Of a DNA stretch of 64,000 nucleotides, positions 17,613 to 45,123 are shown piece by piece. The translations under genes were made by a program, and so were the position numbers. The stretch covers positions 99,918 through 163,917 of the forward strand of contig CAWDPO010000014.1 of the NCBI GenBank assembly GCA_963804165.1, read 5' to 3'. The notes beneath the pieces were generated by a model that saw nothing but the letters and a program-made list of their open reading frames with translations, made no database searches and was not told where the DNA came from. Position 1 is the stretch's first letter, and every line of letters begins with the position of its first letter. The DNA comes from an uncultured delta proteobacterium (GTDB lineage: Bacteria > Desulfobacterota > Binatia > UBA9968).

Positions 17613-18797
17613 ATGCTCACACGCGAAGAAAACGAATTTCTAACTCAAGTCAGCGCCGGCACGCCGTGCGGCGAACTCTTGCGCCGCTACTGGCATCCGG
17701 TTGCCGCCGCCGCCGAATTGACCGACGAAAAACCGATCAAGGCAGTAAAGATTCTCAATGAAGAGTTAGTCGTCTATCGCGATAAAGCGGGCCGCTACGG
17801 CCTGGTCGGCGAGCATTGCCCGCATCGCTCGGCTTCGCTTGCGTACGGCCGCGTCGACGACGAAGGAATCCGTTGCCCGTATCACGGCTGGAAGTTCGAT
17901 TGCACGGGCAAATGCCTCGAACAGCCGGCGGAGCCGGCGGACAGCACGTTCAAAGACCGCATCAAACATGTCGCCTATCCTGTGGAGTACCTGGGTGGCC
18001 TCATCTATGCCTATCTCGGTCCCACGCCGGCGCCGCTCTTGCCGCGCTGGGATGTGCTCGTCTGGGAGCATGGCCGGCGCTGGATCGTCAAGGAGACGAT
18101 CATCGACTGCAACTGGTTGCAGCCGATGGAGAACTCAGTGGATCCGTCGCATCTCTTTTGGCTGCACGGCGATACCGAGCGGTTTGTACCGGGCTTGAAA
18201 ACTTACGCCGAGGAGCACGAGTTTATCCGCTTTGAGTACGGCATCCGAAAACGCCGAACGACGTTGCCGCTGGCGACCGGTGGTAAAACCGCGGTGGACG
18301 ACCATCCGTTGCTTTTTCCGACCGTGTTGCGGCACGTAGCGCCCTATAATGAGGGCAGCGGGCACCGACACAATTTACAGATTCGCGTGCCGGTGGACGA
18401 TTTTCACACTCAGGTGTTCCGCGTGAATTTTTTGCCGATGGAATCCGAAAGATCGCCGGCGGATGCGCCTGTGCCTTTTCGTTTCACTCCCCTTAAGACC
18501 GGCCCGCGCGAGTATAAAATGAATATGATTCCGGCGCAGGACTCGATGGCGTGGGAAACTCAAGGTCTCCTCGCCAACCGCGCGCAAGAACACCTCGGCG
18601 TGGGCGATGAAGGGGTCATCGAGCTGAGAAAACTTCTGCGCGAGCAAATCGAGCGCGTGCAGCAAGGTCTCGAACCTCTGGGGATCATCCGCGACCCCGA
18701 AAAAAATCAGTTGATCGACCTTGGTGTGATCAACGAGCGGATCGGGCTATTTGCTGCATCGGGCACAAGAGCGATGCAGAGCCACGCCGCGCGCTGA
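17613..18797 (+). CDS. Rieske oxygenase alpha subunit
   Basis: MLTREENE, GTPCGELLRRYWHP, CPHR..CPYHGW, ENSVDPSHLFWLH, QDSMAWETQG. Confidence 0.92.
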   Translation: MLTREENEFLTQVSAGTPCGELLRRYWHPVAAAAELTDEKPIKAVKILNEELVVYRDKAGRYGLVGEHCPHRSASLAYGRVDDEGIRCPYHGWKFDCTGKCLEQPAEPADSTFKDRIKHVAYPVEYLGGLIYAYLGPTPAPLLPRWDVLVWEHGRRWIVKETIIDCNWLQPMENSVDPSHLFWLHGDTERFVPGLKTYAEEHEFIRFEYGIRKRRTTLPLATGGKTAVDDHPLLFPTVLRHVAPYNEGSGHRHNLQIRVPVDDFHTQVFRVNFLPMESERSPADAPVPFRFTPLKTGPREYKMNMIPAQDSMAWETQGLLANRAQEHLGVGDEGVIELRKLLREQIERVQQGLEPLGIIRDPEKNQLIDLGVINERIGLFAASGTRAMQSHAAR

Positions 18798-25492: not shown

Positions 25493-26431
25493 ATGGCTAC
25501 AAAGAAAAAAATCAGAATCTACTATCGGGCGCCGAGTCACGTGCCGCTGTGGAAAGTGATGGAGGAAGGCGGGTTTTTGGAGAAGCACGGCTTGGAAATG
25601 GAAATGGGCTCGCTCGAGGGACAGCGCAAGCGCGCGGCTGAAGGACTTAAGGCGGGCGACCTCGACGTGGTGTCGGGCAACCACCATAATTTATATGCGC
25701 GCAAGGCGCTCTACGGCGATCCTTACGTGCACATCGCGCAGAGCAACAACGCCTGGCGGGAAGATTATCTCGTCTGCGGCAAGGGCGTTAATGGCTTGGC
25801 CGATTTAAAGAGCAAACGCGTGGCGATGGATGATTACGACGGCCACACCGGATTGAATGTCTGGCTGTACCTCAAGCAGCACGGGCTGGAAGAAGGACGG
25901 GATGTCGAACTGGTGACCGATCCCGTCAAAGGCGCCGATCGCGCCAAAGCGGTGGTGGACGGCAAATACGACGCGACTTTCATTCGCGCCGTCGATCGAC
26001 TGCGCGCGCTTAAATTCGGCGCGAAGATTATCGAGGTACCGCCGATGGCGATGATCGAGGGAGTGACACTCACGACGACGACCACGTATGTGAGTCAGCA
26101 TGAAGAGGAGTGCCGATCACTGATCATGGCGCTGATTGACGGCATTCATTTTTTCAAAACCAAGAAGGCCGACACCCTCACTATTATCAAAAAACATTGC
26201 TCGCAGCTGCTCAAGATGCACGACGACGAAGAGTGGAACTGTTTCTATGACACCCAGTCCGAATCGCTGGAGAAAGCGCCGTATCCGTCCATCGAGGCCA
26301 TCCAAAATGTCTTCGCTCTCGGCGTGAAACGCGATCCGGAGATCAAGGAATTCAACCCCTTGGCGTTGTGGGACCTGCACTACGTTAAAGAGATAGATGA
26401 CAGCGGTTACATTCGTCGTTTGTACGCGTAA
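25493..26431 (+). CDS. SsuA/NMT1-fold protein without a signal peptide
   Basis: GFLEKHGLE, DLKSKRVA, C-terminal WDLHYVKEIDDSGYI; no hydrophobic N-terminus; distant paralogue of 41440-42339. Confidence 0.75.
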   Translation: MATKKKIRIYYRAPSHVPLWKVMEEGGFLEKHGLEMEMGSLEGQRKRAAEGLKAGDLDVVSGNHHNLYARKALYGDPYVHIAQSNNAWREDYLVCGKGVNGLADLKSKRVAMDDYDGHTGLNVWLYLKQHGLEEGRDVELVTDPVKGADRAKAVVDGKYDATFIRAVDRLRALKFGAKIIEVPPMAMIEGVTLTTTTTYVSQHEEECRSLIMALIDGIHFFKTKKADTLTIIKKHCSQLLKMHDDEEWNCFYDTQSESLEKAPYPSIEAIQNVFALGVKRDPEIKEFNPLALWDLHYVKEIDDSGYIRRLYA

Positions 26432-41443: not shown

Positions 41444-42339
41444 GCGTGATTAAAATTCTCTATCGGGACGTGGACCGGACGCCTTATCTTTACACCGTCA
41501 AGCATGCGGCGGCGCGGTACGGATTGGAGCTGCAATTTGAAAAGGCGACAAGTCCCGAGTTCGGCGAATTCCTCGAAGCCGGCTCTGTGGATTTTCTCGC
41601 CGAGAATTATTGGGGACTGCAAAGCTTCCGCGCGCGAGGCGTGCCCTTTATCAGCGTGGCGACCGCGGTGACTTGGCTCAATGAAAAGCTGTTCGTTCAT
41701 CCCAGTATCGTCAACATCGAGGATCTTCGCGGCAAGAAGTTCGCGATCCGCGGCGTCGGACCGTCGCAGTTGATTCCCGGGCTGTGGCTCAAGGATCACG
41801 GTCTCGGCGCGGACGTGCAGCGGATCGTTTATTCTGAAAAAGAAGTCGGACGATGGGGCCACTGGAAAAAAGTTGTGAGCGGCGAGTGCCACGGTTGTTT
41901 CGTGACCAACTTCTATCAAAACGAGCCGGCGGCAGCCGGGTTGAAACTTGTTCCGGTCGAGCCTTATGGGTTCATCGGTAACGTCACATTGACGACGACG
42001 GAAGGATTCATCGAACGCCGGCGCAGTGAGGTGCAGCATCTGGTGACCGCGGCCTTCGAAGCGTCTCAACTCTTCAAGCACGATGCCGCTACGGCGTTGG
42101 CGATCTGCAAGAAAGAACCGAGCGAGCTGCTCAAGATCGAGAACGAAAAACAGCTGGAGTTCACCTATCAGATTCTCCGCGACGAGCTTTCCGAAGCGCC
42201 GCTCCCATCGCCGGAAGGAATCTCGAACACGATGAGGATGCGGCTCGACAGCTCGCCGGAGTTGACGAGCTTCAATCCGGTGGTGATGTGGGATTTTAGT
42301 TTTGCCCGGGAAGCGATGAAGCGGCGAGGTGGCGAATAA
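41440..42339 (+). CDS. SsuA/NMT1-fold protein without a signal peptide
   Basis: IKILYRD..TPYL, DLRGKKFAI, FNPVVMWDFSF; ATGA-coupled to hyuB copy 2. Confidence 0.72.
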   Translation: MSVIKILYRDVDRTPYLYTVKHAAARYGLELQFEKATSPEFGEFLEAGSVDFLAENYWGLQSFRARGVPFISVATAVTWLNEKLFVHPSIVNIEDLRGKKFAIRGVGPSQLIPGLWLKDHGLGADVQRIVYSEKEVGRWGHWKKVVSGECHGCFVTNFYQNEPAAAGLKLVPVEPYGFIGNVTLTTTEGFIERRRSEVQHLVTAAFEASQLFKHDAATALAICKKEPSELLKIENEKQLEFTYQILRDELSEAPLPSPEGISNTMRMRLDSSPELTSFNPVVMWDFSFAREAMKRRGGE

Positions 42340-42408
42340 CGCAACCACGAAGGACCCGAGATGCACGCATCCCAACTTCCTGCCGCCCGAGACGAGACGG
42401 TGTCTCGA

Positions 42409-42507
42409 CGTCATCCTGAGGCTCTTCGGCTTCGCTCAGGATAAACTCCGCCGAAGGATCTCGTCTTCGTGAGCCGCAGGAAATGTGAGATTCTTCGCTA
42501 ACGCTCA
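42409..42507. repeat. REP-like cluster; the last unit is interrupted by the IS
   Basis: GTCATCCTGAG..CTCAGGATA..GAAGGATCT, then GATTCTTCGCTAACGCTCA, which continues as GAATGAC at 43825. Confidence 0.8.
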
Positions 42508-42584
42508 TCTATGAAAGCTTTGTCAAGGTATCTGTTAGTCACATATTGTTTTTTCTTCTCATGGTTTCGAATACACCAGTACTT

Positions 42585-42713
42585 ATCGTCCGTGGCAAAG
42601 CGTACCCGATGTTATCGGACTCATCTATTCGCCGTCTAAAGCGGCAGAGAAAAATGCCACAGGGCTGTCGCAATCAGAATTCGGGTCTCAGTGGACCCAT
42701 GAGCCGCGCGCGC
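42585..42713 (-). ncRNA. Candidate bridge/seek RNA of the IS1111-type element
   Basis: Minus-strand stems GGGTC/GACCC, GTGGCA/TGCCAC, GCCG/CGGC and CCGAT/ATCGG; unpaired segments GCTCA and ATTCTGA match the target and ATAGATGA matches the donor junction. Ends approximate. Confidence 0.72.
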
Positions 42714-43754
42714 TTAGCCCTGCGTGGACGACATCGGTTCGCGATAGCTTTCTCCTTTTTTCAACATCCAGAAACTCGCCTCCGCCAAGTGTCGGGCCAC
42801 GGCCACAATCGCTTTGCCGTGCCCCCGTCTGGCTTTGACATTTTCATACAGCCGGGCAACGTGTCGGTACTCGCAGCGCTCGCGGTTGAGCACCGCGCTA
42901 TTGGCCGCTTCGGTAAAGGCCCACTTCAGATAAAGATTCACATCCTTTCTCACCCGCCCGTAGCGCACCTTGCCGCCACTGGAGTTCTCCCGGGGTACCA
43001 GCCCCGCGTAACTCGCCAGCTGCTCGGCTCGGCCAAAGCGCTCGATCGTACCGATCTCAGTCCAGATCACCACCGCCAACATCTCACCCACTCCTGGCTC
43101 GCTCTGCAAATAAGTCGTCTCGGCACAGGGAGCAAAGGCTTGGCGCATTTGGCCTTCAATGGTCTTGAGATTGGCCTGCACATGGTCGAGCTCGTCGAGC
43201 ATCAATCGCAGCGCTTGTTGGGTGTGCGGTGGCAGCTTGGAGCAAAGCTCTTCGATGATCTGTCGGCCCCGCTTGCCAAAGGCGTCGCTGACGCCGTCGA
43301 CCTTGAGCCCGTACTTCTCCAGAGTGGCGTGAATACGGTTCTTGAACTGGGTTCTCTGCTTGCTGAGCACCATGCGGGTGCGCGGCAGCTCGCGGGCATC
43401 ACGAACCGCAGACGGCGCAATCCACACCGTCGGCAGGGTTCCGACTCTCTGCAAACGATTCATTCCCTTCGCATCGAGCTTGTCGCTCTTGTTCACGCTG
43501 CCGATCATCAGCTTGGCCAGTCGTGCGTTGACCAGTTGCGGCGATCCTTTCCCCGCCTCGATCTCATCGACTACCCAGTACCAGTTGCCCACGGTCTCAA
43601 CCGCCACCGGGGTTCCCGGACTCCACTTGTTGGTGAAGTTCTTAATCGTTCCTCGACTATGCGCCAGTTTACACTCAAAGAGCTTCTGGCCTTGGTCATT
43701 TTCTACCCGCGCCCAGGTGTAATGCTTATGAACATCCAATGCGACGTATTCCAT
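42714..43754 (-). CDS. IS110-family DEDD transposase/recombinase
   Basis: ALDVHK, AVETVG, KSDKLDA (DEDD), PGVGE..A, YAGLVPRENSSGG (catalytic Ser region), AIVAVARHL. Confidence 0.95.
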   Translation of the reverse strand: MEYVALDVHKHYTWARVENDQGQKLFECKLAHSRGTIKNFTNKWSPGTPVAVETVGNWYWVVDEIEAGKGSPQLVNARLAKLMIGSVNKSDKLDAKGMNRLQRVGTLPTVWIAPSAVRDARELPRTRMVLSKQRTQFKNRIHATLEKYGLKVDGVSDAFGKRGRQIIEELCSKLPPHTQQALRLMLDELDHVQANLKTIEGQMRQAFAPCAETTYLQSEPGVGEMLAVVIWTEIGTIERFGRAEQLASYAGLVPRENSSGGKVRYGRVRKDVNLYLKWAFTEAANSAVLNRERCEYRHVARLYENVKARRGHGKAIVAVARHLAEASFWMLKKGESYREPMSSTQG

Positions 43755-43968
43755 TTGCGATTTCCTCCTCCAGCCGTCAGTCTATCTACCGACGCTGCGG
43801 ATTTCATCGCTTTCATATTAATCAGAATGACATTTATGGCGGGGTTTGCGATTACGACACAATCGCGACGCGGCAGAGGAAAGAGGGCGGACTTCTAACC
43901 GCGAGTAACGCAAAAAATAATCGTCGAGTGGTTCGTAATGAAACAAATGCTCGAACCTAGGAGGCCAA

Positions 43969-45123
43969 ATGGCTAAGAGATCTCCAATCGTAATCCAGTT
44001 TGTCGTGGCGGTGTTTAACCTTGTCATAGGAGCGGCGTTCTTAGCGGATTGTCGGGATGCGCTGGCGCAAGGCGCTGCGCCTAAAGCCGCAGCGCGCCCT
44101 ACCGACGACCTCGTTGCCAAGGCAAAAAAGGAGGGTGAGGTTTCAGTCGCAGTCGTCTCACAAATCGGTCCGGTGGCGCGAGACCTCGAACGGGCTTTCA
44201 AAAAAAGATTCGGCTTGGAGAGTCTCCAAATGAATTTCGGCGTCGGCGACCAGCCCGCGCAATTCGCCCAACTCAAGGCCAACCTATCAGCAGGAATGGC
44301 TCCTGCGTTCGATGCTTTGACCGGGACGGACGAAGAAATCCTCCAAGTTGTGGCGGCGGGACACACTGCCAAAACCCAGGATTGGGAAAAACTGTTGGCC
44401 GAAGTTAATCCGCTGATTCGATCCGGCGCCGCGCGCCCGGCGCAAGTGAGCACAACTATATTTTCCGGCGAAGCGTTTATTTGGGGCAACCGGCTCAAGG
44501 CATTGATCTACAATCCGAAGCTGATTTCGGAAAATGAGCTTCCGAAAACCCACGCCGATCTCGCCGCCCCGAAGTTCAAGGGGAAATATGTCGTCGCGCC
44601 CTGGACCGACGAGTGGGAGATGGGGGTCTTGGTTTATAAGGACAAAAGCAAGTGGCTCGAGATCTTGGACCAGATCGGTCAAAACGCGCGCGGCGTCGTT
44701 CATCTGACGGCCGCGACGGGGCGCTTGCTGCTGGGCGAGTTTCCATTTTTTCCAGGCAACGAATATTACTCCTTCACCGCCAAGGCAAAGGATCCGAAGG
44801 CGCCCATCGCGTACCATTTTTGGAGCGACTATACCGGATTGACCCGGCTTTACTATATCGTGCCGGCTAAAGCGCGGCATCCGGCGGCGGGCACGCTATT
44901 CGCGTTGTGGATGACAACGCCCGAAGCCCAGGCCATTTACCAACCGGTCGCGCACATCACCAATGTCTCCTATGGCCAGAGCGATCACGATAAAGGCATC
45001 AGAGCGGCTATCGATAAAGTAAAGACGCCGGTGATCTCCTACTGGGACAGCGAAGAGAATCTCACAGCATTCAAGTGGTACAGCAGCGACGAAGGACGCA
45101 AATATCTCAGCGAGTTGGTGTAG
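43969..45123 (+). CDS. ABC extracellular solute-binding protein
   Basis: Signal peptide, AKAKKEGEV, YNPKLI..ELPKT..DL..PKFKGK, ARHPAAG.LF..W. Confidence 0.85.
   Translation: MAKRSPIVIQFVVAVFNLVIGAAFLADCRDALAQGAAPKAAARPTDDLVAKAKKEGEVSVAVVSQIGPVARDLERAFKKRFGLESLQMNFGVGDQPAQFAQLKANLSAGMAPAFDALTGTDEEILQVVAAGHTAKTQDWEKLLAEVNPLIRSGAARPAQVSTTIFSGEAFIWGNRLKALIYNPKLISENELPKTHADLAAPKFKGKYVVAPWTDEWEMGVLVYKDKSKWLEILDQIGQNARGVVHLTAATGRLLLGEFPFFPGNEYYSFTAKAKDPKAPIAYHFWSDYTGLTRLYYIVPAKARHPAAGTLFALWMTTPEAQAIYQPVAHITNVSYGQSDHDKGIRAAIDKVKTPVISYWDSEENLTAFKWYSSDEGRKYLSELV

Follow-up and report, generated by a model that had tools for sequence, protein, structure and literature searches.

Handshake-like dinucleotides beside the guides of a predicted IS1111-type bridge RNA from an uncultured bacterium

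Text passages on the insertion sequence IS621 describe left guides of its bridge RNA that read the bottom strand of the DNA and right guides that read the top strand. In the passages of Hiraizumi et al. (2024, PMC11208158), the bases of the RTG and the RDG that pair with the core are followed immediately, on their 3' side, by the handshake guides (nt 81-82 and 166-167), which pair, once the top strand has been exchanged, with the other DNA at its positions 7 and 6. According to those of the 2026 study (PMC13626964), wild-type IS621 passes from one Watson-Crick pair to three on exchange, with insertion favoured and excision suppressed, handshake pairing that is present before exchange lowers the efficiency of that reaction, and the concept is said to be conserved among IS110 elements. 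The IS1111 group is marked, in the corresponding passages, by subterminal inverted repeats, 7-17 bp long (PMC11208160), and by a long non-coding region downstream of the gene (PMC11187229, PMC11208160), and the order of the two matches is reversed in its RNAs (PMC11187229). The handshake concept is thus a known one; in the text passages of this literature, which extend neither to figures nor to supplements, we found no handshake bases described for an IS1111-type RNA. Here we describe an element of this type whose predicted RNA carries, next to two of its guides, dinucleotides that may play the same role.

The window (the whole stretch of DNA that was analysed, 64,000 nt) contains on its reverse strand an insertion sequence (Table 1) whose transposase scores 233.6 bits against the model NF033542, 'IS110 family RNA-guided transposase' (cut-off 140). 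The protein combines a DEDD (RuvC-like) N-terminal domain (PF01548) with a PF02371 C-terminal domain that bears the GL.P....S/T-G motif. It is only distantly related to the transposase of IS621, with which it aligns in the C-terminal domain only (8wt6, E 3.6e-12), as it does with ISCro4 (9t56), the serine motif GL.P....SG included. The element has subterminal inverted repeats, whose 9 bp fall inside the range of the IS1111 group, and its longer non-coding region lies downstream of the transposase gene (206 nt from the stop codon at 42714 to the right end at 42508, against 68 nt upstream of the start), two characters that place it in this group. Since plasmid-borne relatives are at most about 32% identical, it belongs to a clade other than that of the seekRNA elements of PMC11187229, one of an uncultured lineage. 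The IS body was delimited with the help of two empty sites, the junctions of relatives and 10 copies, full or near-full, that the same genome contains, and there is one TG core on each side (left 43823-43824, right 42506-42507). We take it to be an active element of the IS110 family, of the IS1111 type, with a predicted two-loop bridge (seek) RNA encoded in its 3' non-coding region. A TAATAT in the left end (43815-43820) comes to lie, once the ends are joined, at a 17-nt spacer from the -35-like TTGACA of the right end (42521-42526), and the two would form a promoter only in the circular form; no comparable promoter was found on the gene's strand in the integrated state of the window element. 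The model for this prediction is provided by the junction promoters described for ISEc11 and ISEc21 in passages of PMC11187229.

Table 1. Coordinates of the insertion sequence, its predicted RNA and its target (positions in the window unless a contig is given)
Feature	Position	Strand	Details or basis
IS body, IS110-family (IS1111-type)	42508..43822	-	own-genome copies, two empty sites, relatives' junctions
Transposase/recombinase gene, 346 aa	42714..43754	-	PF01548 E 4.9e-13, PF02371 E 2.3e-21
Left subterminal inverted repeat TATGAAAGC, 9 bp	43809..43817	-	reverse complement of 42510-42518; conserved in relatives
Right subterminal inverted repeat GCTTTCATA, 9 bp	42510..42518	-	direct reading; conserved in relatives
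TTGACA, -35-like hexamer in right end	42521..42526	-	spacing counted from the sequence
Left junction 9-mer	43820..43828	-	flank ATTC (43828-43825), core TG (43824-43823), element ATT (43822-43820)
Right junction 9-mer	42504..42512	-	element ATAGA (42512-42508), core TG (42507-42506), flank AG (42505-42504)
Bridge/seek RNA scaffold as aligned (predicted, ends approximate)	42584..42731	-	alignment of 63 sequences
Stem P2, 3' strand UGCG	42669..42672	-	pairs with CGCG 42709-42712; columns 22-25 with 74-77, invariant
Target loop, 5'-side guide	42700..42708	-	7 nt (42708-42702) complementary to right flank, CA (42701-42700) to core
Target loop, 3'-side guide	42675..42680	-	AUUC (42680-42677) identical to left flank, core UG (42676-42675)
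Target-loop extension AU, handshake-like dinucleotide	42673..42674	-	fits left end AT, not right flank AG
Donor loop, 5'-side strand, A/U-rich	42647..42656	-	columns 94-101; putative donor guide, assignment uncertain in this clade
Donor loop, 3'-side guide	42622..42628	-	AUAGA (42628-42624) identical to right end, core UG (42623-42622)
Donor-loop extension AG, handshake-like dinucleotide	42620..42621	-	fits right flank AG, not left end AT
Family B copies	C17:395863-397248, C20:85262-86643, C36:38348-39735, C41:95423-96765		own genome
Target repeat examples	window 42450-42507 and 43825-43880; C45:222928-223045; C9:55626-55723

The genome that contains the window holds a family A of five copies that are ~100% identical (the window's included) plus one at 97%, and a family B of four copies, 81-82% identical to family A, besides one truncated copy. 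Insertion is sequence-specific, with a short shared core: every full or near-full copy of both families (10 of 10) occupies the same target motif, two empty target sites (contig C45 near 222,983 and contig C9 near 55,665) read ..GTCATTC TG AGCGCC.., and the core of the relatives is TG. The near-identical copies in the same motif and the empty sites suggest that the element has been active recently. The left junction 9-mer is common to the six copies of family A. The target itself is a repeat, palindromic and roughly 115-120 bp long, whose inverted ends read TGTGTCGC...GCGACACA. The genome contains 92 copies of its motif GTCATTCTGA, for an expectation of about 14, together with 101 of GTCATCCTGA and 49 of GTCATGCTGA; most of the sites are unoccupied, and after the core the repeat family mostly goes on with AG or AA. 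Family A has the flank GTCATTC and the guide AUUC, family B the flank GTCATGC and the guide AUGC, and this one-base T/G change in both guide and flank indicates that the guide is real.

Several side observations concern individual copies. Family B appears retargeted, by the single guide base that turns AUUC into AUGC, to the GTCATGC variant of the repeat, and the right-flank guide also differs between the two families. The right flank of the window copy (AGCGTTAG, 42497-42505) fits the right-flank guide at 3 of 7 positions and those of the other copies at 5-6 of 7; this poor fit could reflect either a half-matching insertion site, for which the abstract of a 'half-match' preprint (10.64898/2026.08.31.748434) offers a point of comparison, or later mutation. 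Some copies look damaged: one of family B (on C17) has a 1-nt insertion within its donor guide, the 97% copy (C30:69026-70351) has both donor-loop hairpins altered, and the truncated copy (C22:28900-29705) consists of 717 bp plus a 93-bp piece.

The RNA has no curated model, as a search of positions 42300-44000 in Rfam 15 gave no family match at E<=1, and folding the non-coding region on its own gave no signal (z 0.17), so that its structure emerged only from alignment. The RNAalifold consensus of 63 aligned RNAs contains 22 pairs, 15 of them with compensatory changes, and the RNA was assigned to the gene's strand because its invariant G-U pairs fit that strand only. Stem P1 covaries strongly in this alignment; the transposase gene supplies its 5' strand (42716-42724) with its final codons, stop codon included, the RNA thereby overlapping the coding sequence. 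Pair G25-U74 of stem P2 is found in 63 of 63 sequences, and there is a covarying hairpin within the target loop and another hairpin within the donor loop. The target loop runs from P2 through the 7-nt complement of the right flank, CA, UG, the hairpin, the guide identical to the left flank, UG and AU back to P2, and the donor loop ends with the guide identical to the right end, UG, two variable bases, an invariant U and a hairpin. When every RNA column was set against every flank position over the 63 aligned RNAs, the resulting unbiased map of mutual information recovered the guides for the left target, the right target and the left donor. For RT+1 to RT+4 the partners are columns 33-30, with complementarity in 95, 91, 76 and 71%, respectively, of 58 sequences. 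Columns 69-66 carry the same bases as LT-1 to LT-4 in 96-100% of 51 sequences, and columns 127 and 125 the same as LD-2 and LD-4 in all of 58. The map, the co-change between families A and B and the covarying structure all point to a target loop with two guides that read both target strands around the core.

We read each loop as holding two guides. The one on the 5' side, only putative in the donor loop of this clade, would be complementary to the transposase-sense strand to the right of the core; the one on the 3' side has the sequence of that strand to the left of the core and so pairs with the opposite strand. Turning the DNA round makes this the layout of the bridge RNA of IS621, and the two dinucleotides that extend the 3'-side guides then fall at the positional equivalent of the IS621 handshake guides. 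In the element's clade, the donor loop's 5'-side strand has UC at the two positions at which distant relatives carry the core complement CA, and it may be, in this clade, a degenerate or shifted donor guide. Read by eye, its A/U-rich part fits the left end poorly and seems to track left-end positions +4 to +8, not +1 to +6. The IS621 handshake guides come after the guides that read the top strand, which at first sight speaks against the extensions and for another base, U42699 (column 36), which follows the core complement of the 5'-side target guide; the objection falls away when the layout is seen to be that of IS621 with the DNA flipped. U42699 would pair with the final A of the right end, present in nearly all relatives, and would not pair with the last base of the left flank (C here); on the other strand it might act as a further handshake, of one base only, neither side of which varies.

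The initial annotation of the window had noticed that the target guide (42672-42680) and the left junction (43820-43828) share the nonamer aatcagaat, and that the donor guide (42620-42628) and the right junction (42504-42512) share ctcatctat. Direct reading and a pattern search found both identities as described. The window holds further copies, aatcagaat at 25510 and ctcatctat at 18000 and 58048, in unrelated sequence without IS features, and the expectation from shuffling is 0.57 and 0.18 copies per 64 kb, respectively. We also agree with the initial annotation that the bases beyond the core fit the products of recombination and not its substrates, as shown by mismatches at +2 against the empty target sites and the element's left end: the target guide has U at this position and the uninterrupted target sites have G, and the donor guide has G where the donor, whose left end begins with AT after the core, has T.

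Two of its details, by contrast, need to be amended. The core had been given as TGA, by which the left and right homologies do overlap in the window element alone. The conserved core is TG only: relatives with G, C or T at the start of the right flank differ after it, the base that follows TG being different at the two junctions in L031, L083, L096, L109 and L112. The A after TG starts the left end of the element in 53 of 53 sets of relatives and, in this target family, starts the right flank too. The target-guide extension had been given a third base as well (the second T of 'TT', 42672), which is in fact the U of the invariant G-U pair of stem P2 (63/63), hence an extension of 2 nt per loop. 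Both dinucleotides (columns 72-73 and 131-132) sit between the invariant core UG and a stem, P2 in one case and the UCCGA hairpin in the other. In the window, +2 alone discriminates product from substrate, that is, one base per loop, which has a 1 in 16 chance of arising at random, and the significance of the pattern therefore comes from the relatives.

These relatives comprise 21 genome loci and 80 metagenome loci, the latter being the best 80 of 568, with 25-94% identity to the transposase (53% or more for nearly all full-length genes). A protein search in 401 genomes of the window's phylum found one close relative and about 15 remote ones, a scan of viral contigs found none, and a loose DNA pattern run over 401 genomes of another phylum returned almost only chance matches in GC-rich DNA. 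Loci and own-genome copies together numbered 103, and the RNA scaffold was parsed in 101 of them. In two loci (L048 and L061) the RNA ends just past stem P2 and is followed by the reverse complement of the 5' part of an element and its left end, an arrangement that looks like two copies placed head-to-head or nested. Junctions were searched for in 95 loci using five guide bases and TG only, and were accepted on the right side in 85, on the left in 80 and on both in 72. Collapsing identical guide sets left 67 distinct ones, 58 with the right junction, 53 with the left and 46 with both. Inferring the left end from the 5'-side guide of the donor loop proved unreliable (the inferred and observed ends differ in L094), and all counts use observed junctions only.

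Over the four extension bases, the window element has two Watson-Crick pairs before exchange and four after it. The same direction is seen in 45 of the 46 distinct sets with both junctions, which have more pairs after exchange than before (mean +1.78), the sole exception being L099 (4 to 4). The target-loop extension equals the donor at +1 in 53 of 53 sets and at +2 in 49 of 53, and its +2 base equals that of the target flank in 2 of 58 only. The donor-loop extension equals the right flank at +1 in 47 of 58 sets and at +2 in 36 of 58, and its +2 base equals the donor's own in 2 of 53 only. A T is found at RT+2 in 1 of 53 distinct flanks, against 9-21% at RT+3 to RT+8.

We consider it probable, at roughly two chances in three, that these bases serve a handshake-like mechanism of the IS621 kind acting on the other strand. 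The AU of the target loop and the AG of the donor loop would be the counterparts of the IS621 handshake guides. Before exchange, each extension would pair with its own DNA through the shared A only; after exchange of the strand that is read, the AU of the target loop would pair with the incoming AT of the donor, and the AG of the donor loop with the incoming AG of the target flank, the four bases thus going from two pairs to four. By analogy with IS621 (one pair to three), such a gain should pull strand exchange forward in insertion and disfavour excision. The anatomy of the RNA, the position of the extensions, their pairing pattern and a partial covariation are what we observe; we infer from the likeness to IS621 that the pairs would form in the complex and bias directionality, and the effect on insertion versus excision is taken over from the IS621 papers.

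The initial annotation had proposed an equivalent handshake mechanism, which independent variation of these positions in relatives would contradict. The donor loop behaves as that proposal predicts. Its extension columns are variable islands amid invariant columns, and they match RT+1 and RT+2 more often than shuffling predicts: 47 of 58 at +1 against a mean of 34.7, a value reached in 0 of 20,000 shuffles, and 36 of 58 at +2 against a mean of 24.0 (p 1.5e-4), relatedness being ignored in both cases. In the distant clade alone (25 sets), 19 matches are observed at +1 for a shuffle mean of 9.8, and 15 at +2 for 10.1. The signal is specific of the register, since in the mutual-information map column 131 ranks third of 148 for RT+1 and column 132 fourth of 148 for RT+2, and in the wrong register the extension columns rank 101st and 67th. 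Sister lineages on the transposase tree change together (L052 AA/AA versus AG/AG in the window element, L099 AT/AT versus L100 AC/AC, L112 AC/CC versus L096 AG/CG). Among four remote relatives read by eye, L133 (AC/AC), L134 (AC/AC) and L135 (GA/GG) fit and L136 does not; the target-loop AT of L135 also fits its donor, and L136, the misfit, has a different core. Mismatches at +1 occur in L121, L123, L049, L039 and L102.

The target loop behaves otherwise. Its extension is AU in most relatives, almost invariant, and shows no covariation with the donor. As read from the alignment, support is uneven, with covariation for the donor loop and conservation only for the target loop: position, post-exchange fit and donor-loop covariation speak for the proposed equivalence. 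The AT of the donor may owe its conservation to another cause, for instance the spacing of the junction promoter.

This is also where the main rival explanation finds its footing. On this view the dinucleotides, fixed in place beside stems, serve the structure or contact the protein, do not pair with the DNA, and equal by coincidence a conserved donor end (AT) and the start of a common repeat-family target (AG); we regard it as unlikely, although it is the most serious of the alternatives. In the target-loop extension +1 is invariant and +2 almost so, and the variation that does occur fails to track the donor: in six guide sets of one clade the extension is AA or AG, and the donor is AT in all four of these that have a left junction. 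A fixed scaffold would equally account for the clade of the element itself, where 33 distinct sets have a right junction and the donor-loop extension is almost always AG. With the extension nearly fixed there, matches are as frequent as after shuffling (28 versus 28.0 and 21 versus 21.0); five sets of this clade insert beside GA, with a mismatch at both bases (the L031/L032/L079/L083/L084 group and L086). That the genome's target repeats mostly have AG or AA after the core agrees with coincidence as well, and independent contrasts are few. On the transposase tree the donor-loop extension changes only twice at +1 and eight times at +2, and independent-pairs tests, with 6 pairs or fewer, went in the expected direction without reaching significance (for C, 2.4 the same way versus 0 the other; for G, 2.7 versus 0.5). 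A pure scaffold, however, is at odds with donor-loop columns that vary between invariant neighbours and covary in register with RT+1 and RT+2, and with sister lineages in which extension and flank change together. Nor would it be expected to avoid cognate pairing at +2 almost totally in both loops (2/53 and 2/58).

A second alternative, which we consider quite improbable, is that the junction matches of 8-9 nt let the RNA find the integrated ends and promote the formation of the circle, that is, that they serve excision. The matches are indeed to integrated junctions, and flanking target bases are needed for minicircle formation by ISEc21 and ISEc11 in the passages of PMC11187229. In IS621, by contrast, handshake pairing before exchange lowers the efficiency of the reaction (passages of PMC13626964), from which the natural configuration would suppress excision; moreover, the same pairs serve both readings, which differ in emphasis only. 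Finally, that two real guides were each extended by one discriminating base through pure chance is very improbable, since the odds of about 1 in 16 for the window alone and the unrelated copies of each nonamer in it have to be set against a pattern that recurs in 45 of 46 distinct relatives.

Compared with IS621 as described in the passages of Hiraizumi et al. (2024, PMC11208158; 2026, PMC13626964), the handshake-like bases of our element share the position, a dinucleotide that in both loops comes immediately after the bases with which the 3'-side guide pairs with the core, the fit to the non-cognate DNA beside the core after exchange, with a gain of pairs (1 to 3 in IS621, 2 to 4 here), and the covariation of the donor-loop base with the target position beside the core, here over few independent events. 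Unlike in IS621, the RNA lies downstream of the gene, the guides that bear the extensions read the strand opposite to the transposase-sense one, TG takes the place of CT as the core, the donor loop is multi-branched, and the target-loop extension lacks covariation. With the seekRNAs of ISEc11, ISKpn4, ISPa11 and ISPst6, as presented in passages of Siddiquee et al. (2024, PMC11187229), it has in common the location in a downstream non-coding region, the subterminal inverted repeats, an RNA whose match to the top strand precedes (5' to 3') its match to the bottom strand, and specific, often repeated, insertion targets; it departs from that account in the handshake-type bases, of which these passages give no description. 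It likewise resembles the predictions of Durrant et al. (2024, PMC11208160), who inspected six elements of the IS1111 group by hand, in that the bridge RNA lies in the right end and the donor-binding nucleotides belong to a multi-loop and not to a simple internal loop, again according to the passages of that study.

A broader reading joins four propositions, and we advance it tentatively, its chances being somewhat short of even. First, IS1111-type bridge RNAs would mirror those of the IS621 type down to the handshake bases. Second, as the handshake guides read the opposite strand, the first strand to be exchanged would be the other one relative to the gene. Third, a fixed donor-loop dinucleotide would be a hidden constraint on the targets that a lineage can use, from which it would follow that whole clades insert only beside AC, AG or G despite changes in their guides. 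Fourth, the donor loop would have lost, in the clade of this element, the core complement of its 5'-side guide, in which case the donor may be held mainly by one guide together with recognition of the inverted repeats by the protein.

For the window, the analysis fixes exactly where a recently active insertion sequence ends and what its core is. Handshake guides of the IS621 type set the efficiency and the direction, insertion or excision, of bridge recombination, and are a design rule for bridge editing. If the same were true, in mirror image, for the large IS1111 branch, a rule for reprogramming seekRNAs would follow, stating which two bases in each loop have to match the other DNA. It would also explain why the guide segments of this branch come in reversed order, and part of the natural target preference of IS1111 elements.
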